From Microgenomates group bacterium (GTDB taxonomy: Bacteria; Patescibacteriota; Microgenomatia; UBA1400; MFAQ01), in NCBI GenBank assembly GCA_049303575.1, contig JBAQNH010000002.1:83984-147983 (forward strand): a stretch of 64,000 nt of DNA, written 5' to 3'. Both the position numbers and the translations under genes were made by a program. Within the stretch, counting starts at the first letter, position 1, and each line of letters begins with the position of its first letter. The notes beneath the pieces were generated by a model that did no database searches, was not told the origin of the DNA, and worked only from the letters and a program-made list of their open reading frames with translations. Of this stretch, positions 1,947 through 61,935 are shown piece after piece.

Positions 1947-4301
1947 ATGGCTCAAAAAAGACACTTTATTCAATCAAAGAATTTTTTATCATATCTCGGT
2001 ACTCCTGTCTTTAAAATTGTTCTCTGGTCGATTTTAATTTTGGGGTACGTCTTTGTCTTCTTTTCCAAACTATTCTCTGCTCCTCTTCCCCAAGTCACTT
2101 TTCCGAAAATTTCCTTTCCAAAAATCTATTTTCCCCATATCTCATTTCCCAAAATAATTTTCCCAAAAATTATTCTCCCTCATTTTCCCAAAACTGTTTA
2201 TCCCCAACCAAAAATTGATTTAAACTCCCTTCGTTCATACCTTTTCTTTTCCCTTGGAGTTATTTCACTGGTTTGTTTCATCTACATTGAGTTTTTTTAT
2301 GGACTCCCTAGTCCAAGGATGCTAACCGACTATCCTTCAAAACTTACTACTCAGATCCTAGACAGAAACGGCAAACTTCTTTACAAAATTTACAAAGACG
2401 AAAATCGCACTTTAGTCACTCTTGACTCACTTCCTTCTCACGTAAAAAACGCCTTCCTTGCCGCCGAAGACAAAGACTTCTACCACCACAAGGGTTTCTC
2501 CGTCTCTGGTACACTTCGCGCACTATACAAAAATATTACTAATAACAAAACAGAAGGAGGTTCTACTATTACCCAGCAACTGGTCAAAAACACCCTCCTC
2601 AACAATGAAAAAACTCTTACCAGAAAGATCAAAGAGCTTATTCTTGCCGTCGAGGTCGAGTATACCTACAACAAAGATAAAATTTTTGAGATGTACCTCA
2701 ACCAGGTCGGTTTTGGTGGACCAGCTTATGGTATCCAAGAAGCCGCCAGACAATATTTCAATATTGATGCCAAAAATCTAAATCTTTCGCAAGCTGCTTT
2801 TCTGGCCGGACTCCCTCAAGCTCCCAGTAAATACTCCCCTTTCGGTAATCAACCGGAACTAGCTAAAGAAAGGCAGAAGTTTGTTCTCGATCAAATGCTC
2901 AAGCTGAACATGATTAACAATGCGGATTATCAAAAAGCCGTCGACCAAAAACTTGTTTTTAACTCTGCCAAAATCGAAATTAACGCTCCTCATTTTGTAA
3001 TGTATATCAAAGATATTCTTACTAAAGATCTCGGTGAAAACGTCGTTAACCAGGGAGGGCTTGTCGTCACTACCACTCTGGATCTAGAACTTCAAGAAAA
3101 GGTTCAGCAAATCGTAACTTCTGAAATCAGTAATTTAAAAAAATATCAAGTCAGTAATGGTGCTGCCCTAGTCACCAATCCCAAGACTGGAGAAATTCTG
3201 GCCATGGTTGGTTCCAAAGACTATTTCAATCTTAACGAAGATGGCCAAGTCAACCTAACCTTAGCCTTACGCCAACCAGGAAGTTCAATTAAACCGCTTA
3301 ACTACGCCTTAGCTTTTGAAAATGGTTATGGCCCTGGAAACGTTATTGAAGACAAGCCTATTTCTTTCAATCTTCCTGGGCAAGAACCGTGGGCTCCCAA
3401 AAACTATGACGGTAAATTTCACGGGTTCGTAACTCTCAGACAAGCTCTTGGTAGCTCCTACAACATTCCTTCAGTTATTCTTCTCTCCAAAAATGGCATC
3501 CAAAACTTAGTTGCCCTGGCCCAAAAAATGGGCATTACTTCCTGGGACGATCCTGGTAGGTTCGGACTTTCCATGGCCCTTGGTAGTCTGGAAGTTAGAA
3601 TGGTCGATCTCGCTACAGCCTACTCAACTTTTGCAAACTCCGGCATAACCACACCCCTAAACTCCATCGTCAAAATTGAAAGGTCCAATGGTGAAAAAAT
3701 CTATCTTTCCACCTGTCCCCAAAAAATGGAGGCTGTCGAGGAAAGCACTTCTGCTCTCGCCAAAGACAATAACTGTTCTCCTCATCAATCAGTTTCCCCC
3801 TCAACCGCCTATCTCATCTCCGACATCCTCGCCGATAACAGCGCTAGAGCTCCAGCCTTTGGAGCAAACTCGGTCATCAACATTAAAAAAACCAAGGTTG
3901 CTGTCAAAACCGGAACCAGTAATGACCTCCGCGATAACTGGACCTTTGGTTACACCGACGACTTTCTCGTTTCCACCTGGGTTGGCAACAACAATAACGC
4001 TCCCATGTCTCGTATTGCTTCGGGTATTACGGGAGCTTCACCTATCTGGGCAAAAATTTTCAACATTATTCTTGAGTCCATTCCTCAAATGACCAAAACG
4101 GACACTGTTGCTCCGACCGGTCTTATAAGAGTCCCCATCTGCACCCTTACCGGCACACTTTCCTGTGAGGGTTGTCCTACTAAATATGAATACTATAAAA
4201 AAGGTACCGAACCAAAAACTACCTGCGACCCAGCCAGAATAAAAGAAATTCTCTACCCCACGCCTTCGTCATCAATTGCCCCCTCTCCTCAAATTCTCTA
4301 A
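1947..4301 (+). CDS. bifunctional class A penicillin-binding protein (transglycosylase/transpeptidase, PBP1A), with an N-terminal FPKI tandem-repeat segment
   Basis: Transglycosylase motifs EDKDFYHHKGFS and TITQQLVKN. Transpeptidase motifs PGSSIKP (SxxK), SYN-like SxN and KTGTSND (KTG). An N-terminal TM helix follows the repeat FPKISFPKIYFPHISFPKIIFPKIILPHFPK. Confidence 0.85.
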   Translation: MAQKRHFIQSKNFLSYLGTPVFKIVLWSILILGYVFVFFSKLFSAPLPQVTFPKISFPKIYFPHISFPKIIFPKIILPHFPKTVYPQPKIDLNSLRSYLFFSLGVISLVCFIYIEFFYGLPSPRMLTDYPSKLTTQILDRNGKLLYKIYKDENRTLVTLDSLPSHVKNAFLAAEDKDFYHHKGFSVSGTLRALYKNITNNKTEGGSTITQQLVKNTLLNNEKTLTRKIKELILAVEVEYTYNKDKIFEMYLNQVGFGGPAYGIQEAARQYFNIDAKNLNLSQAAFLAGLPQAPSKYSPFGNQPELAKERQKFVLDQMLKLNMINNADYQKAVDQKLVFNSAKIEINAPHFVMYIKDILTKDLGENVVNQGGLVVTTTLDLELQEKVQQIVTSEISNLKKYQVSNGAALVTNPKTGEILAMVGSKDYFNLNEDGQVNLTLALRQPGSSIKPLNYALAFENGYGPGNVIEDKPISFNLPGQEPWAPKNYDGKFHGFVTLRQALGSSYNIPSVILLSKNGIQNLVALAQKMGITSWDDPGRFGLSMALGSLEVRMVDLATAYSTFANSGITTPLNSIVKIERSNGEKIYLSTCPQKMEAVEESTSALAKDNNCSPHQSVSPSTAYLISDILADNSARAPAFGANSVINIKKTKVAVKTGTSNDLRDNWTFGYTDDFLVSTWVGNNNNAPMSRIASGITGASPIWAKIFNIILESIPQMTKTDTVAPTGLIRVPICTLTGTLSCEGCPTKYEYYKKGTEPKTTCDPARIKEILYPTPSSSIAPSPQIL
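2095..2195 (+). repeat. in-frame 15-nt tandem repeats (about 6 units) encoding FPKIx pentapeptides in the PBP1A N-terminus
   Basis: TTTCCNAAAATNNNN units are visible in the DNA. Protein reads FPKISFPKIYFPHISFPKIIFPKIILPHFPK. Confidence 0.7.
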
Positions 4302-4304
4302 TAA

Positions 4305-4610
4305 CTAGAGAGTTATCTCCACGTAATTTTTACTTTTTGATTTTTCCGGTGTTGGTTTTGCTTGATCCCTATTCTCCGTTTCAATAATCATTGGTTCTCC
4401 TTTTAAAATACTGCCAATTTTGGGCGCCAACCAAAAACCAATCGTAATCACCAAAATAATTATCAGTGACCAAAACACCACCTTTCTTTCGGCGGCTCTT
4501 TCCTCCTTAGACTTCTTTCTTTTTTTTCTTTTAGGTACTCCGTCTCCCACATTCTCATCATCTTCACTAGGAATCTCAATATCCATATCCTGCTCTTTAA
4601 TTTTTGCCAT
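4305..4610 (-). CDS. small hypothetical membrane protein with a lysine-rich N-terminal region
   Basis: ORF of 101 aa with one predicted TM helix (VVFWSLIIILVITIGFWLA) and a KRKKRKKSKEER segment. No recognisable domain. Confidence 0.35.
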   Translation of the reverse strand: MAKIKEQDMDIEIPSEDDENVGDGVPKRKKRKKSKEERAAERKVVFWSLIIILVITIGFWLAPKIGSILKGEPMIIETENRDQAKPTPEKSKSKNYVEITL

Positions 4611-5586
4611 TTACTTTCCAAACATCGATATTAACAAGACACTTGGGTTGTCTGCCCTCCAAAATATCATTCATGCTATCCGTTACAATTCTGGCCATTG
4701 CTACTCTAGCTTCGACTGTTGCCGATGCTGTGTGTGGCGTCAATACTGTACTGGGAAGTTCATAGAGTTCAGGCGGAATTTTTGATTCATCCTCAAAAAC
4801 ATCCAGACCGGCTCCGGCAATCTGCCTTTCTTTAAGGGCCGTAATCAAAGCCGCTTGATCCACGATTGGACCTCGAGATGTATTAATTAACAGTGCCGTC
4901 GGTTTCATTAATCTTAATTCTCGCTCTCCAATCATGTGTTTTGTCTCCTCCGTCAGAGGCACCGATAAACTTACCACGTCCGCCAATTCCAACAATTGAT
5001 CTAAGGTGTGATAAACCACCGAGTACTCTTCTTCGAACTCCTCATCTCGATGACGATTGAAGTAAATTATTTTCATTCCCAAAGCTCCGGCCATCCTGGC
5101 CGTCCATCGCCCTATTCGCCCAAGGCCGACAATACCCATTACCTTGTCTTTGACCCCTGTTCCCAAAAGTAAGTCCGGTTCCCATCCTTTATACTTTCCG
5201 GCTCTCACAAATCTATCCCCCTCCACAATTCTTCTGAAAAGTGCCAGAGTTAACGCGATTACTTCCTCGGCTACAGCTTCCGTTAGTACCCCTGGTGTGT
5301 TTGTCACGCAAATTCCCCTCTTGGTTGCTTCAGCTACATCAATATTGTCAAAACCCACCGCATAGTTACTGATTACTTTAAGAGTAGGTCCAGCCGCTTC
5401 CATTACCTCCGTGTCGATCCTCTCGGTCAGTAAAGAGATAATTCCTGCCACACCTTTTACACTTCTAAGCAAATCTTCTCTACCAATATCCTTCTTTTGC
5501 CACACCACTACTTCATACTTCTCTTTCAATTCTTTAAGATACTTATCTAAAAAAACATGAGTTACGAATATTTTCTTTTTGTCCAT
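4597..5586 (-). CDS. D-isomer-specific 2-hydroxyacid dehydrogenase (glycerate/hydroxypyruvate reductase-like)
   Basis: NAD-binding GIVGLGRIGRWTARMA segment. Catalytic-domain signature LINTSRGPIVDQAAL..GAGLDVFEDE. Confidence 0.8.
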   Translation of the reverse strand: MDKKKIFVTHVFLDKYLKELKEKYEVVVWQKKDIGREDLLRSVKGVAGIISLLTERIDTEVMEAAGPTLKVISNYAVGFDNIDVAEATKRGICVTNTPGVLTEAVAEEVIALTLALFRRIVEGDRFVRAGKYKGWEPDLLLGTGVKDKVMGIVGLGRIGRWTARMAGALGMKIIYFNRHRDEEFEEEYSVVYHTLDQLLELADVVSLSVPLTEETKHMIGERELRLMKPTALLINTSRGPIVDQAALITALKERQIAGAGLDVFEDESKIPPELYELPSTVLTPHTASATVEARVAMARIVTDSMNDILEGRQPKCLVNIDVWKVNGKN

Positions 5587-5632
5587 ATCTTAATTAAAGC
5601 ACACGGTGTACCGCATTGTACTCAAGCTCCCT

Positions 5633-6625
5633 TCAGGGCACATCCAAGGTTTCCTCCACTGTTTTTAGTTTTCTCTTAAGCCATTTTTCCATCTCCTTTT
5701 TATACAATAATCCGTCTTTTGCTCCCAATTTGGTCACTACCGAACCACCGTTGGCCAACCCCATTTTCAGCACCTCCTCCGCCACTCTTCCTTGTAATAA
5801 ACCAGCCACTACTCCGGAAACAAAGGCATCTCCAGCTCCTGTATCGTCAATCGATTTGTTAGGATATGCCTCCATCTTCAGCCACTTTCCCCCCTTCCAC
5901 ATCCCCGCTCCTCTATCACCATCGGTAATCATCAACAATCGCGTCCCTGCCTTCACAAAGCTATTCACCAAAACCTCTTCCTCTTCAAAACTACCACCCC
6001 AAAACTCCGCCGCTTCCATTCGATTTACGTTAAACAAATCAATTTTGGGTAAAAGACGTAACATTCTCTCTTTTTGTATCAATTCTTTTTTCCCAGGATT
6101 AACTCCAATTTTAATTCCATGCTCCACAGCAAAATCAACCAAATCCTCGAGTAAATCCATTTCTCCCCCCAAGCTGGATACCTGAATCCAGTCGGCTTTT
6201 TTAATTTCTTCCCAGTCAATTTCATTTCTCTCAATCTCGCCGCTTTCCCCACGATATGTCACGATCGATCTTCTTCCATCCGTCGCCACTAGCACCGCCG
6301 AAATACCCGTCTTCCCTTTAGTCCTTTGTAAAAAGGATAAATCCACGTTTTCCTTCTCCAATTCTTTTATCAATATTTCACTCAGTTCATCGTCTCCAAC
6401 CCTGCTTATCATTTTTACGGCTTCGCCCAGTCGATGTAATCCCGCCGCTACGTTTGTTCCTCCACCTCCACTCACCAGGACTCCATTTTCTGCCTCGATT
6501 TTTCCTCCCATCACCTCACACATCGCCACCCCACCCTCAACCTGATGGCTCTTTAAAACTCGCAAACTTTTTGATTTCAAAAGCACATCAATCACCGCTG
6601 CACCAATAACCACTACTTTCTTCAT
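5633..6625 (-). CDS. PfkB-family carbohydrate kinase (ribokinase/fructokinase-like)
   Basis: N-terminal VVIGAAVIDV and a GG dipeptide segment. C-terminal DTGAGDAFVSGVVAG matches the PfkB DTxGAGD signature. Confidence 0.75.
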   Translation of the reverse strand: MKKVVVIGAAVIDVLLKSKSLRVLKSHQVEGGVAMCEVMGGKIEAENGVLVSGGGGTNVAAGLHRLGEAVKMISRVGDDELSEILIKELEKENVDLSFLQRTKGKTGISAVLVATDGRRSIVTYRGESGEIERNEIDWEEIKKADWIQVSSLGGEMDLLEDLVDFAVEHGIKIGVNPGKKELIQKERMLRLLPKIDLFNVNRMEAAEFWGGSFEEEEVLVNSFVKAGTRLLMITDGDRGAGMWKGGKWLKMEAYPNKSIDDTGAGDAFVSGVVAGLLQGRVAEEVLKMGLANGGSVVTKLGAKDGLLYKKEMEKWLKRKLKTVEETLDVP

Positions 6626-6678
6626 ATCTTTATTCTAAACTAAAACCAACCACCCTTTTGTTATAATTCGACTAGTCT

Positions 6679-7470
6679 ATGCAAAGTTCATCGTTTATCA
6701 CCGTTATTGGAGTCTTGTGTTTTGTTTTGATATTTGTCTATCGAATTCAAGCACTGCACATCAAAAAAATCTGGCATCTCTCTCTTCAGCAAATCATTTT
6801 TCTAATCCTTATCCCCGGACTTGTTTTCCCCATGATCTTTTCCTATTTGCAATCGATGGTTCGCCTACCCAGAAGTGATACTTCCTTTTTTCCCGATGGT
6901 TTTTTGGTCAACATAATTTTGTTATCTGTAATGTTCTCTTATGGTGGTGTTGCTATCCATGCCGTTACCAAAATGCTCTCTGGATATCTCAAGGACAAAA
7001 ATAGTGAACTCGCCCAAGTAAATAAATTTTTTCACTTAAATTTTTCTCACAATCTAATTTATAGTGGCATTATCATTTCTTCACTCGGTATAACACTACT
7101 GGAAATAAATCACGTCCCCAATGATGGAATAACCAATCTCGGTTGGGGAATTTTTCGCGGAATTGTTCTTGGACTTAGCTTTGCCATCTTTATTTATTAC
7201 TACACTCGAGCGTCATCAAACATTTATCGCGGTAGGTGGAGTGATCTGAAACTTTTCTTTGGTGTCGCCTGGATAGGTTTTTCTTTACTTCTCTATATCA
7301 TCCAAAAATTTGACATTGGCTTTACCGAGTACCAACTACTGCTTCCCATGCTTCTTTCTTTTTCCTTTGTTGCTGGTCTTAGTCTCATTTTAGTTATCAA
7401 GAAACTAAAAAATGGCGGCCTTCGTCTAAACTTCAAAAAGAAAATAAGTAAAGTTCTTAAACTAGACTAG
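6679..7470 (+). CDS. hypothetical polytopic membrane protein
   Basis: Six or more hydrophobic helices. No recognisable catalytic motif. Confidence 0.4.
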   Translation: MQSSSFITVIGVLCFVLIFVYRIQALHIKKIWHLSLQQIIFLILIPGLVFPMIFSYLQSMVRLPRSDTSFFPDGFLVNIILLSVMFSYGGVAIHAVTKMLSGYLKDKNSELAQVNKFFHLNFSHNLIYSGIIISSLGITLLEINHVPNDGITNLGWGIFRGIVLGLSFAIFIYYYTRASSNIYRGRWSDLKLFFGVAWIGFSLLLYIIQKFDIGFTEYQLLLPMLLSFSFVAGLSLILVIKKLKNGGLRLNFKKKISKVLKLD

Positions 7471-8216
7471 TCTTTATATACTATCTCTGCCAACTTCTTC
7501 GATACTTCGTTAGGGTTCTCATCCTGCCACACGTTTCTGCCGATCGCAATTCCCGCTGCTCCGGCCTGCATCACTCCCTTGACTTCCTCTTCCAAATTTT
7601 CCCAATCTACTTTTTTTCCTCCCTGTGCCAGCACTCCTGTTTTTCCGGCTGCCCTCACCGCCCAGGAAAAACTCTCCGAGTCTCCGGTATAAGGAACCTT
7701 CACAAAATCCGCATTCATCTCCAGTGCCAAACGTGCCCCATAAGCCACCACATCCCGGTCATTTTCCCGCCCGGCCACCTTTCTTCCTCTGGGATACATC
7801 CAGGCAATCACAATCATTCCTCGTTCATGTGCCTCATCCTCGATTCGAGAAAACTCCACCATCATTTGCTCTTCAAACTGACTCCCTACATAAATGGTAT
7901 AACCTACTCCGATTGCCCCCATTTCTGCTGCTTTTTTAACCGTACAAAGTTGTAAAGACAAAGGCTCTTCTCCTTGAAATGATGTTTTTCCGTTAAGTTT
8001 TACAATAAGTGGCACTCCCGATTCTTTTTTATAATACTTTGCCGCAACCCCCTCTTGAAAAACTACTCCGGTAAAATCGCCATTTTGGGCAATCTTCATA
8101 ATGTAATTAGGGTCAACCGATTTCTCGTTAAAATCTACCGGACCATGTTCCATCCCTTGGTCATAAGCCAAAAGCATTACCTTGCCTTTTATTTCGATTC
8201 TTGAAGTGTCAGCCAT
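7467..8216 (-). CDS. class I (DhnA/FbaB archaeal-type) fructose-bisphosphate aldolase or related ADH synthase
   Basis: DhnA-family TIM-barrel signatures (VKLNGKTSF, IAWMYPRG, FVKVPYTG). Sits inside a pentose-phosphate/glycolytic gene cluster. Confidence 0.65.
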   Translation of the reverse strand: MADTSRIEIKGKVMLLAYDQGMEHGPVDFNEKSVDPNYIMKIAQNGDFTGVVFQEGVAAKYYKKESGVPLIVKLNGKTSFQGEEPLSLQLCTVKKAAEMGAIGVGYTIYVGSQFEEQMMVEFSRIEDEAHERGMIVIAWMYPRGRKVAGRENDRDVVAYGARLALEMNADFVKVPYTGDSESFSWAVRAAGKTGVLAQGGKKVDWENLEEEVKGVMQAGAAGIAIGRNVWQDENPNEVSKKLAEIVYKD

Positions 8217-52833: not shown

Positions 52834-53838
52834 TCATCGTAACTTGGAAATTAGCCTGTAGTTTGAACTCCCAACTACCTTGAAATATCGGATAATCTCA
52901 TCCTTTTTATATAGCCACACTTTATTATTGGACTGATACTTTGGAGAAAAACCTAAAGTAGTTAGTGTTTCGAAGACAAATGTTAATAACGGAGTTGATA
53001 CGTTTGTGAAGTTTATGGTTAGGTACGAGTATTGTTTTCCGTTTATTGTGTATTTATGTTCAAATAGTCCTCCGTCTGTATCAATAAGCCCTCTAAGACA
53101 CATTGTTGAATAATTGATGTCTCCTGTTATCCACTTTGGAACCGTTATTTGAATTTTTGATTTGTTTCCAAAGGAAATACCATTTTTATTCAAGAACTTA
53201 ACGAGATTAACACCGCTATACTTTAACGAAATTGCATTGGCTTTCTTGTATTTATATAGAGATGGGGAATATTTAAATAATTTTTCTGATAGATCCTTGA
53301 CATACTCCATATATTTATTGTCTAAAATTGAATTAAGGGTGATGGTCAGTTGATATTTTGTTAGTCCTCCATCACCTAAAACAATTCCAAACAACTCGGC
53401 TAATTGTTTTGATTCGTTTGGAAAATTAAAAATATTGGGTACATTGCAACCAATTGAACGATAATAATCTGGATTTTCTTTCCTGTTTTTCTGGGACATT
53501 TCTCCTCCTTTTTTTCGCCCAGATTCATTTCCAGGTGGTCCATATAGTTTATTCCTCTTTAGTGTACCAATAGGTCCATTGATTCTTCCACTCCACCATT
53601 CTTCTCTTTCTTCCAATATTGGTGGAAGGGTAATGCCAGAAATTTTGCTAATTTTTTTCATTGCGTCTCTACTTCCTAAAGTCTTTTCGCTAATCCAATA
53701 CCTGAAGCTTCTTCCTGAGATACCAACAAATTTTGATAGACCATCCGAGTTTAGAGTAAGGATAGCCATAACCTTTTTCAAGTATTTGTTTTGTTCTCCT
53801 CGTTTAAATACCAATCTTGTCATAGCTAATCCTAACAA
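52834..53838 (-). CDS. free-standing double-motif LAGLIDADG homing endonuclease with an N-terminal HTH-like region
   Basis: Two LAGLIDADG motifs, LFGIVLGDGGL and LRGLIDTDGGL. Lies 16 nt upstream of tRNA-Ser(GCT) on the same strand. Confidence 0.75.
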   Translation of the reverse strand: MLGLAMTRLVFKRGEQNKYLKKVMAILTLNSDGLSKFVGISGRSFRYWISEKTLGSRDAMKKISKISGITLPPILEEREEWWSGRINGPIGTLKRNKLYGPPGNESGRKKGGEMSQKNRKENPDYYRSIGCNVPNIFNFPNESKQLAELFGIVLGDGGLTKYQLTITLNSILDNKYMEYVKDLSEKLFKYSPSLYKYKKANAISLKYSGVNLVKFLNKNGISFGNKSKIQITVPKWITGDINYSTMCLRGLIDTDGGLFEHKYTINGKQYSYLTINFTNVSTPLLTFVFETLTTLGFSPKYQSNNKVWLYKKDEIIRYFKVVGSSNYRLISKLR

Positions 53839-53900: not shown

Positions 53901-53982
53901 GGAGAGTGGGCAGGACGGTAATGCGTTGGTCTTGAAAACCAATGAGCGCAAGCTCTAACAGGTTCGACCCCTGTACTCTCCG
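53901..53982 (+). tRNA. tRNA-Ser (anticodon TGA), class II
   Basis: Acceptor GGAGAGT/ACTCTCC, anticodon stem TTGGT/ACCAA with loop CTTGAAA, variable hairpin GAGC-GCAA-GCTC, T-arm CAGG-TTCGACC-CCTG, discriminator G. Preceded by TAAAAT. Confidence 0.8.
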
Positions 53983-53987
53983 CCTCA

Positions 53988-54072
53988 GGAGGGGTCGCAT
54001 AGTGGTCGAGTGCTCCGGTTTACTAAACCGGCGTATCGCAAGATACCGCGGGTTCGAATCCCGCCCCCTCCG
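53988..54072 (+). tRNA. class II (Ser-type) tRNA with an apparent anticodon ACT (unusual A34); possibly a tRNA-Ser variant or pseudogene
   Basis: Acceptor GGAGGGG/CCCCTCC, 3-bp D-stem GCA/TGC as in tRNA-Ser, anticodon stem CCGGT/ACCGG with loop TTACTAA, variable hairpin GTATC-GCAA-GATAC, T-arm GCGGG-TTCGAAT-CCCGC, discriminator G. Confidence 0.55.
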
Positions 54073-54094
54073 CATTTAAATAGTTACACAACTA

Positions 54095-57608: not shown

Positions 57609-58277
57609 TTAGTGAGCTAAAGCTAATCCCCAAACCACCGCCGCTCCTTTTTTCTTGAGCATCTTGGTGCACTCCCTCATATCCGCTCCGCTAGTAAAAA
57701 CATCGTCCACTAGCAATATCTTTTTCCCTTTTAATTTTTTCTTGAAATTTTCTCTAACCTCAAAAACTCCTTTTACGTTTTTTTCTCTCACTTCTCTCTC
57801 CAAAATCAACGACTGTTGTTTTGTTTTTTGTTTTCTTCGCAGCACCTCTTTTACTTCAACCTTCATTTTTTTACCAATCACTCTTGCTATTTCTTCCGCC
57901 TGGTTAAAACCCCTCCAATTCTCACGGTAAAAATGCAAAGGAACGGGCACTAAATAATCAAAGCTCTCCCCAGACTCAAACTGAAAGTTTTTCAAAACAC
58001 TCTTTATTAACTCCTTATTAAAATCAAATTTAATTCCATCAATTATCGACCTCATTTTTACATCCTGATAATCATAAATCACAATTAGTCCATCCATTCC
58101 CATTTTCTTTTTACACTCCCTGTGTGTCCAACCCATCGGCGACTCTCCCCCACACTCTGAACATATTTGATCAGCTATCGAAAGTTCTCGAAAACACTTG
58201 CCACCTAAATCTTTTCCATATTTTCCACATCCATAGCATCTTTTGGGAAACAAAAAATCAAACACCATATCAAACAC
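57609..58277 (-). CDS. comFC: ComF-family protein (phosphoribosyltransferase domain with an N-terminal zinc finger)
   Basis: N-terminal CYGCG..CSECGG. C-terminal PRTase motif KKILLVDDVFTSGADM. Confidence 0.7.
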   Translation of the reverse strand: MFDMVFDFLFPKRCYGCGKYGKDLGGKCFRELSIADQICSECGGESPMGWTHRECKKKMGMDGLIVIYDYQDVKMRSIIDGIKFDFNKELIKSVLKNFQFESGESFDYLVPVPLHFYRENWRGFNQAEEIARVIGKKMKVEVKEVLRRKQKTKQQSLILEREVREKNVKGVFEVRENFKKKLKGKKILLVDDVFTSGADMRECTKMLKKKGAAVVWGLALAH

Positions 58278-58395
58278 AAAACAATTCTAACCGAGTAAAT
58301 ACAAAAAATCTCCCCGTTAGGAGAGATTTTTGTATATTGTGGAGATGGGGCGCCACTTCTTGAACCATTTCTGTTATCCCTCATTTCTTCGGTAA

Positions 58396-58716
58396 ATGAT
58401 AACTGGCACTTGGAAAATGACAACCGTTGGCTTTTGCTTCCACCCGAAAAAAGTGATGGTCTTTCTTCGTATAATAGTTATAGTGACTATAAATACTAAA
58501 CCCAAGCAATTACCCAAACCGAAAGTGGCTGTTCCTGTTCCTCAGCCACGAATTAGGATACTTGATGGCGGATATAACTCGGGCATTTCGGGCTTTGTCA
58601 GCTCCCTTCAATCAGTCAATCTCAATGCTCCCGAAGCCTCACAAAACGCCCACTCAATAAGCGACAACCGAGGTGGAAGAATAGAGCTTGGCTTGGAGAA
58701 TTACATTAAGAAGTGA
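58396..58716 (+). CDS. hypothetical protein (first gene of the putative integrated element)
   Basis: ORF only. Hydrophobic N-terminus. Confidence 0.25.
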   Translation: MITGTWKMTTVGFCFHPKKVMVFLRIIVIVTINTKPKQLPKPKVAVPVPQPRIRILDGGYNSGISGFVSSLQSVNLNAPEASQNAHSISDNRGGRIELGLENYIKK

Positions 58717-58757
58717 GACCTTGAACCTTTCAGGATGAAGGTCAAGTAAGTAATTAA

Positions 58758-59192
58758 ATGGACGAAGAAACCGACATAATTTTCCGAAAAGTGGAGCCTT
58801 TCTTGAAGTGCGGTCTGAGCCTCCACAAAGCCTGTCTACAGGCTCAAATACCCAAAAGCACGGCATATGACCTATACAAGAATAACAAGTCATTCTCGGA
58901 AAGAATAGACACCAGTAGAAATTATTACTCAGTGCTTGTAACTAGCATTGTCACGAAGGAGCTTGAGAGGATAAGCTCAAAGCAAGACCGAGGTAAGAAA
59001 TTACAACCATTGGAAGTCAGGCTCATTCAATGGATAGCCACAAACAGCCGTTCTCTCAAGGGTGAGTATGGCGACGAGCCTGAGAAATTGGATGAAGAGA
59101 TAAAGCAAGACGACACCATTACATTACTTCAAAAAATAATTAACGACTGTTCTCGGAAAGACAAGGATACACTGGAAGAGCAACCCTCTTGA
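58758..59192 (+). CDS. hypothetical protein, possible HTH (terminase-small-subunit-like) N-terminus
   Basis: GLSLHKACLQAQIPKSTAYDLY resembles a helix-turn-helix. Acidic C-terminus. Confidence 0.3.
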   Translation: MDEETDIIFRKVEPFLKCGLSLHKACLQAQIPKSTAYDLYKNNKSFSERIDTSRNYYSVLVTSIVTKELERISSKQDRGKKLQPLEVRLIQWIATNSRSLKGEYGDEPEKLDEEIKQDDTITLLQKIINDCSRKDKDTLEEQPS

Positions 59193-59311
59193 ACGGTATT
59201 TATAATCATTATAAGTTGTCCTCTTTGGGTTGAGTTTCCTTTCTGCTTCAACCATCACATTCCAACTCGGATTAGCCAACTTAATACTTAGGTAAATTAA
59301 CTCCTACAAGG

Positions 59312-59905
59312 CTAATCATTAAGGTGTTGCATAGCGTAGTCTGCTTCTGCCGCTGTAAATTTACCGCCATACTGTGAAACGAGTTGGTCACGAACAGCTG
59401 CTGGTGACAGGTTCATAGTATCTTGGTAAGTTTTTGCCTGTGAGAGAGCATTTGCATTCCAATTTGCTTTTACATTATCTATTGCATATTGTGCTGCTTT
59501 TGGCGAAAATTTCCCGCCATATTGTGAAACAAGTTGGTCATAGACACCCTGCTTAGACAAATGCATTGAGTTGGCATATGTTGTTGCTTGGGCAAGAGCA
59601 GATTTGTATTCCGCTGGCACATTTGTGCTTGGTGCTGTTGGTGCAATCGGAGTGGTTTTTGCGGAAACTGTCACACTGGGAGTTGGTTGAGTAGTATCGG
59701 TATCAGTAGTGACGGTCTCGTTACTCTCGGTTGTTTTACTTCCCTTACCTCCACTTGCAGAACCAATCATACCCAAAATAAATATAGCCAAAATAACCGT
59801 GAGTATCGGATGTCTTGCAAACCAAATCCTTTGGTCTGACTGACAATAAGGACACTTCTTGGCTTTATTATCTATCTCTTTCTGACAAGACTTACATTTT
59901 TTCAT
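59312..59905 (-). CDS. Ltp-family (PF07553-like) surface protein with an N-terminal zinc ribbon and TM anchor; putative superinfection-exclusion protein
   Basis: CKSCQ..CPYC zinc ribbon, one TM helix and a Thr-rich linker. Two tandem repeats: QATTYANSMHLSKQGVYDQLVSQYGGKFSPKAAQYAIDNV and QAKTYQDTMNLSPAAVRDQLVSQYGGKFTAAEADYAMQHL. Confidence 0.55.
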   Translation of the reverse strand: MKKCKSCQKEIDNKAKKCPYCQSDQRIWFARHPILTVILAIFILGMIGSASGGKGSKTTESNETVTTDTDTTQPTPSVTVSAKTTPIAPTAPSTNVPAEYKSALAQATTYANSMHLSKQGVYDQLVSQYGGKFSPKAAQYAIDNVKANWNANALSQAKTYQDTMNLSPAAVRDQLVSQYGGKFTAAEADYAMQHLND

Positions 59906-60019
59906 TATTCTTGTTTGTTAATAATTTTTTAATACTCCTTGTCACCTACCTACTTCAAATTGTAATCCATTCCACAGTCTAAAAACAACAATGCAGTTCG
60001 GGGATGTAAAATCAGGGCA

Positions 60020-61561
60020 ATGGAATACTACGACCTTGATGTCACAAAACTAAAGTATGTCCTCTACCTTCGCAAGTCCACCGACGACGCTCAAAGGCAA
60101 GTCAGGTCTATTGGCGACCAAGAGGCAGAATGCTTTGACCTCCAAAGACGGCTCGGACTAAATATCGTCAAAACCATAAAGGAAACAAAGTCGGCAAAGT
60201 CCCCTAACAAGCGTCCACAATTCCGAGAAATGCTTGATGGAATAAAAATGGGCAAGTATGACGCCATTCTTGCTTGGAACCCCGATAGGTTGGCAAGAAA
60301 TATGCTTGAGGGTGGAGAAATAATTTATTTGGTGGACGAAAACATTATCAAAGACCTAAAGTTCGTTACTCACCCATTCACACCCGACCCAAACGGCAAA
60401 ATGCTTCTCGGGTTGGCTTTTGTCCTCTCCAAGCAATACTCGGATGACCTCTCTCAAAAGATTTCCCGAGGAGTAAAAAGAAGCTTCAGTGAAGGCAAGA
60501 TTGGCACCTACAAACATGGTTACAAGCGTGATGATGAAGGGTTCCAAGTTCCCGACGGAAAGAAGTTTGAGCTCATTAAGGAGGCTTGGGAGCTTAGAGC
60601 CGAAGGTCGTTCCCTTGAAGAAATAGCCTCCATCATAAACGACAAGGGATATGAGAGAAAAATAAAAAGAACGGGAGTAATTATGAAGGCAGACGCCAAA
60701 CTATTGAGTAAGCTTTTCCGAGACCCATTTTATTTTGGAACTTTGATACAAGCGGGTCAAACAATAAACCTTCTCCAATTTGGCTTTATTCCTGCCACCA
60801 CAAAAGAAGTTTACGAACATATCCAGTTGCTCTCATCAAACCGACTCCGACCATTCAATGTCAGGCGAATGACATTCTTCCCTCTTAAGGCAATACTGAG
60901 GTGTTCATTTTGCGGAAAGAATATGGTGGTGGCTCCATCAACAAGCCGAGGAGGAGGAAAGCTTTTGTATTGTCGTTGCGATACCAAAGGATGTCCGAGG
61001 ATAAAGAAATCGCTCCGAATGAAGTTTGTCTTTGATTTTATCTACGACTTTTTGGATAACAATCTAAAAATCACCGAGAAGGAATACCAAAAATATCTTG
61101 ATGAAACCGACGCTCTCAATGTAGAAGCGACAAGTAATACCTACCTTCAAATCCATACTCTTGAGGGACAGGTAAAAGCTATCACCCAAGAAATCAAGGA
61201 AAGCTCACTTGGTCTCGTCAAAATAAACTCCAAATCTCCAGCCTTCAATATAGTAAACGATAGGATTTCAAGCCTAGACAATGAAAAGTCAGGCTTGGAA
61301 GAGAAACTACGAGACCTCAGGAGCACTCTAAAAAGCCCCGAGAGTCAGAGGTTGGGTATGGATGAGTTCTTGAACCTGTGTAAAAATGCGGGTGCTATCG
61401 CAAGAAGTGCCACCGAAGTTCAAAAAGATACAATTTGCCGATATGTTTTCTTGAACCTATCTGTGGATGAGGAAAAAGTAGTGGCATATCAACTAAAAGA
61501 GCCGTTCAACACATTGGTCAAACGGCTCTTTATCCAAGAAGGTGGAGACGGAGGGAATTGA
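60020..61561 (+). mobile_element. large serine recombinase (serine integrase) CDS
   Basis: Resolvase-type catalytic N-terminus (VLYLRKSTDDAQRQ, nucleophilic Ser), recombinase domain, zinc-ribbon (CSFCGKN..CRC) and coiled-coil. The 3' end overlaps the tmRNA 3' end. Confidence 0.85.
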
Positions 61562-61935
61562 ACCCTCGTCTGAAATAATAAATCTACAATTTCTACAAGC
61601 TTAGTTTGCCGTTTTTCCATAAAGCTTCAGGCAAACAAGAACACTTTATGGTCGACTTAGAATAAGTTAGTCTCCAAGCCTAAATCACGCCTTGAAGCAT
61701 TCAATCCGGTGTTTTTTCGCCTTAAAGGTACCCCGGGATCCGATATTCTCTAGAGCGTCTCGAACTCGAGTTTAGGCAAAAGCGTAAACGGGAGCGAAAG
61801 ATTTGGCTTCACTTGAGGTGAAACCAAGTAACTTGTCTTCTTTATTGACAGTTGTATTTTGGTCTTTTTTACTCCTTTTACCAAAGGAGGCTTGCAGTTG
61901 TAAACGTACTAGTCCATCGATTCCGGTCGTCCCCA
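61541..61935 (-). ncRNA. ssrA: tmRNA (ssrA), about 395 nt
   Basis: 5' GGGGACGACCGGAATCGATGG matches the tmRNA 5' consensus (GGGGnuGAuucuGGAUUCGAcGG). Acceptor GGGGACG pairs with 3' CGTCTCC, giving a G3:U wobble, with discriminator A plus CC. T-arm GAGGG-TTCAATT-CCCTC. Candidate tag ORF GCC..TAA encodes AKSFAPVYAFA. smpB lies immediately upstream. Confidence 0.75.

Follow-up and report, generated by a model that had tools for sequence, protein, structure and literature searches.

A compact element at the 3' end of the tmRNA gene in a CPR bacterium and its split serine integrase gene

In the genome of a Microgenomates group bacterium, about 3.2 kb of DNA separates a ComF-like gene from the tmRNA gene (ssrA), and a large serine recombinase gene within it runs up to the RNA gene. 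The initial annotation of the window (the whole 64,000-nucleotide stretch analysed here) read this DNA as an integrated element of about 3.3 kb starting at 58280, with two small hypothetical genes, an Ltp gene and the recombinase gene between the ComF gene and the tmRNA; all of these are present where it placed them. Three questions arise: is the region a mobile element, where does it end, and which enzyme put it there?

The insert and its boundaries

The features of the region are as follows.

57609 to 58277, minus strand: ComF-like gene, host
58304 to 58331, minus strand: intrinsic terminator of ssrA, host (12-bp stem and T run)
58339 to 58345: attL core GTGGAGA, left copy of a 7-bp repeat (blastn break-points against L098)
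58346 to 58499, plus strand: P' arm and detached integrase C-terminal extension (TTGAAC at 58360 to 58365)
58396/58417 to 58716, plus strand: small conserved partner protein (ORF clustering)
58758 to 59192, plus strand: 144-aa protein, orf144 (weak likeness to small-terminase-type helix-turn-helix proteins)
59312 to 59905, minus strand: Ltp-family membrane protein (Pfam Lipoprotein_Ltp, two matches, and PHROG)
60020 to 61561, plus strand: large serine recombinase (int), 513 aa, integrated and C-terminally swapped form (Pfam, PHROG and fold)
61540/61541 to 61934, minus strand: tmRNA gene, the target (Rfam, 116 bits; also ARAGORN)
61542 to 61548: attR core GTGGAGA, right copy of the repeat (break-points and core search)
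61549 to 61563: B' arm, formed by the 3' strand of the tmRNA acceptor stem and the T-arm (TTGAAC at 61558 to 61563)

A 23-mer from the body of the tmRNA retrieved 26 contigs, and in 20 of them a terminator-like hairpin directly adjoins the tmRNA 3' end, meaning that the site is empty; comF lies on the hairpin side, as in the window, in 7 of these 20. The gene order is therefore not one that is conserved without empty alleles. In related metagenome contigs with about 93% nucleotide identity, the order is comF, terminator hairpin and tmRNA, with nothing between them. Three empty contigs (L098, L095 and L106) share 87-93% identity with the window flanks, and L098, at about 93% nucleotide identity to the window, encodes SmpB and orf80 products that are 98.6% and 98.8% identical to those of the window. 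An exact look-up with ComF gave no match, and one with SmpB gave a single short identical contig and nothing else. The empty alleles in close relatives, together with the 7-bp flanking repeat, bear out the presence of an integrated element between comF and ssrA.

The hairpin noted earlier at about 58305 to 58335 as a possible element boundary is real: on the minus strand, a T run follows its 12-bp stem (dG -17.9 kcal/mol, z -4.3). As it occupies the same place in the 20 empty-site contigs, it is host DNA rather than part of the element, and it lies 8 nt outside the boundary. The element thus starts at 58339/58346 and not at 58280, with positions 58278 to 58338 belonging to the host. Compared with the empty-site contigs, the insert is exactly 3,203 bp (58339 to 61548 in the window with both cores). 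The insertion has displaced the ssrA terminator by 3.2 kb from the gene that it serves. The tmRNA gene itself is intact and its mature product unaltered, the change being limited to the templated bases past discriminator A73 (CA to CC).

The blastn break-points against the empty site of L098 overlap by exactly 7 bp, GTGGAGA, which corresponds to C74, A73 and the first five acceptor-stem bases of the tmRNA. On both strands of the 64-kb window, GTGGAGAYGG occurs only twice, at 58339 and 61542. The comparison with insert-free relatives that the initial annotation had proposed thus defined attL and attR and narrowed the exchange to this core. In the host site, attB, the order is terminator, then TATAT-TGTGGAGACGG-AGGGAATTGAACC. 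At position 8 of the core region, attL has T where attB and attR both have C, so that parsimony puts the crossover, and with it the presumed strand exchange, inside GTGGAGA, although a later C-to-T change in attL would allow a crossover in the following GG instead. For the window, the sequence data confine the exchange to GTGGAGA; for most tRNA-Pro loci, the interval is GTCG. At the far boundary, the displaced copy of the tmRNA 3' end measures just 7-10 nt (GTGGAGATGG, 58339 to 58348). A generic repeat search did not reveal the boundaries, as the core is too short; the empty sites provided them.

The recombinase and its attachment sites

Both profile matches and fold show the 513-aa protein to be a large serine recombinase. 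Pfam Resolvase matches residues 14-160 (E 3e-20) and a PHROG integrase profile residues 9-489 (E 1e-55), while Pfam Recombinase is barely over its cut-off (21.4 against 21.1 bits) and Zn_ribbon_recom is under its own (21.0 against 25.3 bits). The catalytic serine of PDB 3g13 (in YCRVSTD) is matched in the alignment by S20 (in YLRKSTDD), which is invariant in 31 homologs; C295, C298, C320 and C325 are invariant or almost so. In the AlphaFold model, a catalytic domain with helix E (124-157) is followed by a helical recombinase domain (180-273), zinc-ribbon beta strands (293-333) and a coiled coil of two long antiparallel helices (353-400 and 407-436, pLDDT mostly 80-90). Foldseek gave full-length matches to the SPbeta (E 4e-21), Bxb1, PhiC31 and LI integrases, and the recombinase domain matches 4kis and 4bqq, at a sequence identity of 13-16% to the solved integrases. 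The zinc ribbon and coiled coil of the initial annotation are therefore substantiated, and the protein has the full large-serine-integrase architecture rather than that of a resolvase or invertase lacking the integrase domains.

The recombinase gene had been described as lying flush against ssrA. The adjacency holds, but the ORF in fact enters the tmRNA gene by 21 nt, its last 7 codons including the stop. The integrated gene ends in host DNA, since the B' arm gives int its final four codons and its stop, the TGA of the T-loop.

The same arm carries a motif with a constant position. In all 59 attR sites, where the arm is of host origin, T[TC]GAA starts at +17, and in 31 of 33 attL sites, where it comes from the element, TTGAAC starts at +22, the window included. 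TTGAAC thus spans +17 to +22 where the arm is the host's and +22 to +27 where it is the element's, 5 bp farther from the core. This is the same shift as in the serine-integrase model, in which the zinc-ribbon motif lies 5 bp nearer the centre in attB than in attP half-sites (PMC3783163). The shift is confined to the right-hand arms, the left arms being asymmetric. The zinc-ribbon domain may well read the T-loop motif TTGAAC. A 7-bp inverted repeat in the rebuilt attP, CAAGAAG-N17-CTTCTTG, was dropped as an attachment-site feature: it is centred on position 9, offset rightwards by 2 bp from the core (positions 1-7), and it is absent from the tRNA-Pro relatives. The attL of L042, the other tmRNA-targeting locus, was looked for and not found.

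Could another mechanism, either a transposase or a tyrosine integrase supplied in trans, have inserted the element, with the serine recombinase as a passenger? The 3' ends of tmRNA genes are classic tyrosine-integrase targets (PMC7192596), but the insert encodes no second recombinase, the ORF and Pfam survey having turned up no tyrosine integrase or other recombinase in it. Moreover, the core is 7 bp as compared with at least 25 bp at tyrosine-integrase tRNA sites (PMC9262239), the geometry of the arms is specific to serine integrases, and in L102 the same core is taken up, in the same arrangement, by an unrelated second serine-integrase element. Such an origin is extremely unlikely. We conclude that the region from 58339/58346 to 61541/61548 is, in all likelihood, a compact integrative element placed by its own large serine integrase in the extreme 3' end of ssrA.

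The enzyme resembles the large serine integrases of phages (PhiC31, Bxb1, A118/LI and SPbeta SprA) in its domain order, in the zinc ribbon with an inserted coiled coil, in its full-length fold, in the short common core and in the 5-bp offset of the outer motif. It differs from them in that: the target is a tRNA or tmRNA 3' end and not a protein gene or an intergenic site; attP lies inside the integrase gene, and integration replaces the C-terminus of the enzyme; and the host is a CPR bacterium with elements of 3-7 kb that carry no virion genes. Islands and prophages of tyrosine integrases in tRNA and tmRNA genes (the Islander/TIGER class; 'Traffic at the tmRNA gene') share the target gene. They also enter at the 3' end, leave the RNA gene whole and have the integrase gene beside it (PMC7192596), and attB sites overlapping tRNA genes have been reported for tyrosine integrases of mycobacteriophages (PMC9262239). 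Their enzymes belong to an unrelated family, and they duplicate a long 3' fragment where the present elements have a core of 4-7 bp. A further difference is that here the mature RNA is untouched, because the exchange falls at A73/C74 and the top of the acceptor stem.

The split gene and its relatives in CPR genomes

The int frame stays open through the core and on into the other end of the element, where it encodes a C-terminal extension. In the window, this extension comprises 51 codons counting the junction codon, on the plus strand and in frame with int (stop at 58497 to 58499). After integration it is stranded at the opposite end of the element without a start codon. A profile of the extension matches in 33 loci, always on the int strand, and in the 32 that have a whole attL, the core codon keeps the int frame, which stays open over 43-53 codons. 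Synonymous and non-synonymous changes in three close pairs number 12 versus 2, 11 versus 1, and 3 versus 0, so that the extension (43-53 aa, 33 loci) appears to be under purifying selection. As the int frame crosses the core into this conserved extension, integration swaps the C-terminus of the integrase. The predicted integrase of the circular form has 560 aa; in its AlphaFold model, the extension has a pLDDT of 30-45 and no assignable fold.

In the circular form, attP would lie inside the integrase gene, with the final codons of the conserved part as its P arm and the opening 9 codons of the extension as its P' arm. The full-length enzyme of 560 aa could then be made only from the unintegrated element. 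Comparable logic is known from mycobacteriophages. In integration-dependent immunity (BPs and others; Broussard 2013), attP lies in a coding gene, which loses its 3' end upon integration at a tRNA gene and takes a new stop from host DNA (reviewed in PMC9262239). As here, the integrated and free forms make different proteins. There, it is the repressor that is split, a degradation tag that is removed and a tyrosine integrase that acts, whereas here the serine integrase itself is split and the removed piece is a conserved module of 43-53 aa. The archaeal SSV1 integrase, a tyrosine recombinase, also has attP in its own gene, which is split upon integration into a tRNA gene.

The initial annotation had called a serine integrase at the end of tmRNA unusual. 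This is true for the enzyme class, but the locus is not a one-off: of 67 relatives that could be assessed, all in CPR genomes, 59 have a recombinase ORF that likewise overlaps the 3' end of a convergent tRNA or tmRNA gene. The targets of these 59 loci are tRNA-Pro (51), tmRNA (2) and others (6), and the overlap, always in the same frame, is 11-22 nt in 42 loci and 41-173 nt in 17. Placement at ssrA and tRNA 3' ends is the rule for the whole recombinase clade in CPR genomes. At least nine kinds of tRNA or tmRNA gene are used by the family, whose members (more than 1,000 proteins) occur in at least 420 of 185,579 species-representative genomes. The tmRNA of L001 was found by Rfam and missed by ARAGORN because of a scaffold gap. 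Repeat-based attL sites at L002 and L008 were rejected as junctions with remnants of older integrase genes; at L002, the extension profile located a nearer attL.

Elements are stacked in tandem at L113 and L002. SCCmec elements, which are serine-recombinase (Ccr) islands at the 3' end of a conserved gene (rlmH), can also stack in tandem, but SCC elements are much larger and their Ccr genes unsplit. In Group 1 proviruses of Thermotogota, serine recombinases adjoin tRNA-Glu, -Phe or -Pro genes, and the authors of that study propose that the recombinase recognises the adjoining tRNA gene (bioRxiv 10.1101/2020.11.07.368316). These proviruses are complete, with genes for head, tail and lysis; no crossover point, att architecture or gene overlap was found described for them. 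The literature searched, which covered few subscription journals, contained no description of the clade and no serine integrase gene that spans attP; a family of CPR elements with a serine integrase at the tmRNA 3' end and a split int gene was not found in it.

Is the element still mobile? A 94%-identical integrase (88% at the nucleotide level) is found at ssrA of a host whose flank is just 78% identical, with different cargo. We count this as evidence for mobility. Alternatively, the element might be fixed, with an inactive or domesticated recombinase and an incidental overlap with ssrA. No circular junction or excised form was seen among the contigs examined, two other contigs 100% identical to the window, which come from two additional runs within the project, show the integrated attL or host flank alone, and the integrated gene lacks its conserved C-terminus. 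Against this, the element is missing from relatives with about 93% identity, every ORF is intact, the integrase is more similar between lineages than the host flanks are, and the same overlap and frame recur in the 59 loci, across nine kinds of tRNA or tmRNA gene. We therefore consider an immobile relic unlikely, and a functional integrative element remains the preferred reading.

Having attP inside the integrase gene would give the clade a built-in sensor of its own state: the free circle alone would yield the full-length enzyme with its tail of 43-53 aa, and the integrated copy would yield a tail-less enzyme ending in tRNA-encoded residues. Tentatively, as a reading less likely than not, we suggest that across the CPR-wide clade: the universal T-arm of tRNA-like genes serves as the outer recognition motif; the placement of attP in int acts as the state sensor; and the tail, with or without the small partner protein, sets the direction of recombination.

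Cargo, origin and significance

The 3.2-kb insert contains four genes in addition to the detached integrase extension, none of them for replication or transfer. ORF clustering found the small partner protein in 39 of 81 loci, in each case encoded on the int strand. It has the C-terminal motif L..L..VD...P.A.LN.TSISDNNGGRIEL and no match in Pfam, PHROG or PDB, and a database search returned itself alone. We regard it as a candidate cofactor or directionality factor. No directionality factor was identified in the element; excision would require one, for which the small protein is one candidate. The product of orf144 is probably a DNA-binding regulator, with relatives in clusters 5 and 13 (10 locus entries, the window counted) and below-threshold matches to Pfam Sf6_terminase (E 0.009) and the PHROG terminase small subunit (E 0.004). 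The Ltp protein has an N-terminal zinc ribbon, one hydrophobic transmembrane helix (residues about 33-52) and two Lipoprotein_Ltp repeats (E 1e-41), and it matches the superinfection exclusion family phrog_4980 (E 8e-55); it is predicted to be element cargo for superinfection exclusion. Cargo across the islands includes Ltp, restriction-modification, reverse transcriptase and Erm-like methyltransferase genes.

Such a gene set might suggest the decayed remnant of a larger prophage at ssrA, of which the integrase, Ltp and terminase-like genes were left after deletion. An Ltp protein and a small-terminase-like fold are typical of phage, and larger forms among the relatives carry relaxase-like and ATPase genes. 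Yet both att sites bound the insert, and the integrase, its extension and the small protein are all intact. The 24 relatives with both ends mapped are small as well (3.1-7.5 kb, median 4.75 kb). Pfam and PHROG gave no capsid, tail, packaging or lysis genes in the insert, only the sub-threshold small-terminase-like matches, and no family member was found in the 2.9 million viral contigs of IMG/VR. A prophage remnant is accordingly quite improbable.

A phage satellite or mobilizable islet, excised upon infection by a helper phage, packaged through the terminase-like protein and repaying its host with Ltp exclusion, is also doubtful, if slightly less so. It would accommodate the Ltp exclusion protein, the absence of transfer genes of its own in the element, and the weak small-terminase-like matches, which recur in related cargo at other loci. 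On the other hand, those matches score poorly (E 0.004-0.009), known satellites are far larger than 3.2 kb, capsid-remodelling, primase and repressor modules are absent, and there is no known helper phage. The compact integrative element thus remains the reading that we favour.

The insertion of large DNA relies mainly on serine integrases, which in nature usually target idiosyncratic protein genes, and few genetic tools exist for CPR bacteria. The present elements are mobile DNA of CPR bacteria and form a large natural family directed to the best-conserved portion of tRNA and tmRNA genes, the ends of which are landing sites present in every genome; the shifts of target within the family amount to a natural experiment in integrase retargeting. 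For annotation, such islands, defence cargo included, will escape island finders built around tyrosine integrases or long repeats of tRNA fragments. Finally, the split integrase gene suggests a directly testable mode of directionality control, and the state sensor, if true, would be a new one for serine integrases.

Insertion at the ssrA 3′ end

The initial annotation had described a compact integrated element between comF and ssrA, and all the genes that it placed there were recovered by ORF listing and profile searches. The region contains the following features:

57609-58277, minus strand: ComF-like gene (ORF listing and profile searches)
58304-58331, minus strand: ssrA intrinsic terminator (12-bp stem and T run, z -4.3)
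58346-58499, plus strand: extension segment of the integrase (tail profile, in frame with int across the core)
58396/58417-58716, plus strand: small ORF (ORF listing)
58758-59192, plus strand: 144-aa ORF with only weak matches to small-terminase-like helix-turn-helix proteins
59312-59905, minus strand: Ltp-family protein (two Ltp repeats, E 1e-41; PHROG 'superinfection exclusion', E 8e-55)
60020-61561, plus strand: recombinase, 513 aa (ORF listing and profile searches)
61541-61934, minus strand: tmRNA (ARAGORN call; Rfam, 116 bits)

The tmRNA gene is followed by orf80 and then smpB. The recombinase had been described as flush against ssrA; it does adjoin the gene, but the final seven codons of its ORF (GGDGGN and the stop) cover 21 nt of the tmRNA 3′ end, the stop codon being the TGA within the T-loop sequence AATTGAA.

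When metagenome contigs were scanned with a 23-mer from the tmRNA body, 26 related loci were obtained, none of which carries the window's recombinase at ssrA. In 20 of them a terminator-like hairpin is followed at once by TGTGGAGACGGAGGGAATTGAACC, the tmRNA 3′ end, and in seven of these 20 empty sites comF lies on the hairpin side, as in the window. The relative's locus L098 lacks the insert and is very close to the window (SmpB 98.6% and orf80 98.8% identical). In blastn, window positions 58161-58345 correspond to L098 1-185 and 61542-64000 to 179-2637, the two break-points having the 7 bp GTGGAGA in common; these break-points give an insert of exactly 3,203 bp. A search of both strands of the whole window located GTGGAGAYGG at 58339 and 61542 and nowhere else. 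This comparison with related genomes lacking the insert, proposed earlier as a check, defines the att ends to 7 bp and, together with the 20 empty-site alleles, substantiates the integrated element.

A hairpin had been suggested as the other boundary. The hairpin at 58304-58331 is real, but a hairpin occupies the same position after the tmRNA in the 20 empty sites, and the window's sits 8 nt beyond the element boundary; it is the ssrA terminator of the host, which the insertion has displaced.

Inside the element's left end lies a minus-strand promoter-like site (58396-58423, TTGTCA-16-TATCAT, 10/12 matches), which faces outward to comF, a gene whose upstream region was altered by the insertion. 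Elsewhere in the window, ARAGORN calls a tRNA-Ser with anticodon ACT at 53988-54073, directly after tRNA-Ser(TGA) at 53901-53984, and Rfam confirms a tRNA there (55.8 bits). A serine tRNA with A34 is unusual, and the ACT may be a mis-placed anticodon call. The G+C content steps near 53600 from about 0.33 to 0.42-0.47, sustained to the window end, and this step coincides with the tRNA gene cluster.

The integrase family, its targets and the strand-exchange point

By every feature testable in its sequence the recombinase is a large serine integrase, with predicted catalytic activity. Residues 9-489 match PHROG 'integrase' (E 1e-55), and in an alignment with a solved recombinase domain S20 falls in the region of the catalytic serine. 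The AlphaFold model, for which 31 homologs were used (pLDDT 78.5), combines a resolvase fold and a long helix E with a helical recombinase domain; its zinc-ribbon strands have four conserved cysteines, and two long helices run antiparallel. Over its full length, Foldseek matched this model to SPbeta integrase (E 4e-21), Bxb1, PhiC31 and LI integrase. The PHROG and Foldseek matches bear out the proposed phiC31/Bxb1 class, and the enzyme features and empty sites uphold the overall reading of a mobile element with a serine integrase at ssrA. Within the large serine integrase class, the element stands out for a target that is unusual and common to its family, and for its split integrase gene.

More than 1,000 homologs were found; the best 120 of these, all from CPR/Patescibacteria assemblies, show 48-57% full-length identity, except one at 94%. 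Taking one genome per species gave at least 420 relatives, from which 80 loci were fetched. The recombinase ORF overlaps a convergent tRNA or tmRNA 3′ end in 59 of the 67 loci with enough sequence, the targets being tRNA-Pro (51, three anticodons), tRNA-Leu (3), tmRNA (2, window counted), and tRNA-Tyr, tRNA-Glu and tRNA-Arg (1 each). Of the 59 loci, 42 have an overlap of 11-22 nt and the other 17 one of 41-173 nt, including 12 at 56-58 nt, in which the T-loop reads TCGAA and provides no stop. The C-terminal tails are antisense translations of the target (SRG.. for tRNA-Pro, GGDGG for tmRNA). Placement at an RNA-gene 3′ end is a family rule, not peculiar to the window. At two loci (L006 and L056, 9500-12900), the integrase tail finishes with ..GRDLRKS and is separated from the tRNA-Pro gene by about 3 kb; a second insert without the family extension seems to have entered between them.

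In mycobacteriophages, attB sites overlapping tRNA genes have been reported for tyrosine integrases (PMC9262239). For serine recombinases, a Paracoccus phage has a predicted site in tRNA-Met (PMC6536676), and a preprint on Thermotogota proviruses places such enzymes beside tRNA genes and proposes tRNA-gene recognition (bioRxiv 10.1101/2020.11.07.368316). No description of the CPR clade or of its T-arm-based sites was found in open-access papers and bioRxiv.

In the window, attB reads ...GTATAT-T-GTGGAGA-CGGAGGG..., attL ...GTATAT-T-GTGGAGA-TGGGGCGCC... and attR ...CCAAGAAG-GTGGAGA-CGGAGGG.... In attL the core is preceded by a host-type base and followed by an element-type one, and in attR the opposite holds; because of this switch, exchange is placed within GTGGAGA, which spans C74, A73 and acceptor positions 72-68. 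Exchange in the GG after GTGGAGA is possible if attL later underwent a C-to-T change. As far as the discriminator, the mature tmRNA keeps its sequence; the insertion alters nothing but the templated bases beyond A73, which go from CA to CC. In most tRNA-Pro loci the shared core is minimally GTCG, and in the window it is GTGGAGA; the only dinucleotide common to all cores is GT (A73-C74).

Cargo and mobility

The elements with both ends mapped (n=24) span 3.1-7.5 kb. Other cargo differs from locus to locus and includes MerR-type and XRE-type regulators, Erm/KsgA-like methyltransferases, restriction-modification genes, a reverse transcriptase and, in the window, Ltp. Directly upstream of the integrase, eight family elements carry an Erm/KsgA-like rRNA adenine dimethylase gene (Pfam RrnaAD, E 1e-48): that of the locus L066, at 7080-7970, and those of seven further loci. 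Of 81 loci, 39 encode a small protein ending L..L..VD...P.A.LN.TSISDNNGGRIEL; its gene shares the integrase strand in every case and lies either immediately before the integrase or beside attL, where it often overlaps the extension stop. The protein has no match in Pfam, PHROGs or PDB and may be a cofactor or directionality factor.

Several comparisons point to mobility. An integrase 94% identical to the window's (88% at the nucleotide level) occupies ssrA in a host with a flank only 78% identical, where the preceding gene differs from the window's. The locus L102 (JGI Ga0074195_1000201), whose source is closely related to the window's host, has a 3.75-kb element of another kind (about 3780-7530, window orientation) at the same ssrA core (TGTGGA). 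Tandem arrays also occur among the loci, as do remnants of older integrase ends. The L102 element encodes an unrelated 523-aa large serine recombinase (about 23% identity to the window's over the recombinase and zinc-ribbon region), which likewise extends into the 3′ end of the tmRNA gene, and its different cargo includes a ribbon-helix-helix-like protein. In the contig of the 94%-identical integrase, about 100 nt of unrelated sequence and an N run, probably a scaffolding artefact, interrupt the tmRNA 3′ region (L001 2037-2149), and for this reason ARAGORN found no tmRNA there.

Among window-identical contigs from two further runs, which hold integrated attL or host flank alone, no circular form or restored attB of the window's element was seen. 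No family member was found in IMG/VR viral contigs, and no transfer genes in the window's 3-kb element.

The split integrase gene and the att arms

A longer tail past the core is present in some homologs (P0063 and P0091) and in short ORFs upstream of several loci. When a profile of this tail was run against all loci in six-frame translation, it matched 37 times in 33 loci, always on the integrase strand. In all 32 loci with complete attL, the tail is in frame with the core codon before it (xR for tRNA-Pro, CAD for tRNA-Leu, GGD in the window), and an open frame of 43-53 codons follows, with the usual ending ..YNxxYEY. Synonymous versus non-synonymous differences in the extension number 12 versus 2, 11 versus 1 and 3 versus 0 in close pairs. 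As the tail follows the core in frame at attL, attP lies inside the integrase gene, and joining 61548 to 58346 yields a 560-aa integrase ending ...GGDGAPLLEPFLLSLISSVNDNWHLENDNRWLLLPPEKSDGLSSYNSYSDYKY. The free element would therefore encode the full integrase, and the integrated element an integrase that takes its last codons and stop from the host RNA gene.

The nearest published parallel that we found is integration-dependent immunity in mycobacteriophages, where attP lies within the repressor gene and host DNA beside the tRNA gives a new stop, although the enzyme there is a tyrosine integrase (PMC9262239). No serine integrase gene spanning attP was found in open-access papers and bioRxiv.

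At three loci with P0091 (L110, L111 and L112), the integrase has its extension attached and is followed by NYN, DNA methyltransferase, Replic_Relax, DUF87 ATPase and SLFN_AlbA_2; this looks like a larger, perhaps mobilizable relative. At the locus L113 (P0063 plus P0005) two such elements stand in tandem, with the ORF of the first integrase entering the extension of the second element.

With att positions counted from the G complementary to C74, the T-loop motif T[TC]GAA begins at +17 in 59 of 59 attR sites, and TTGAAC begins at +22 in 31 of 33 attL sites (61558 and 58360, respectively, in the window). No matching symmetry was seen in the left att arms; the window's rebuilt attP holds an inverted repeat centred off the core. 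The 5-bp shift from +17 to +22 has a counterpart in LI integrase, for which Rutherford and colleagues showed the zinc-ribbon motif to lie 5 bp nearer the centre of attB half-sites than of attP half-sites (PMC3783163). This agreement supports two proposals: that the recombinase made these junctions; and that the family integrases use the conserved T-arm for outer recognition. Such T-arm recognition, if true, would explain the clade's moves among different tRNAs and tmRNA.
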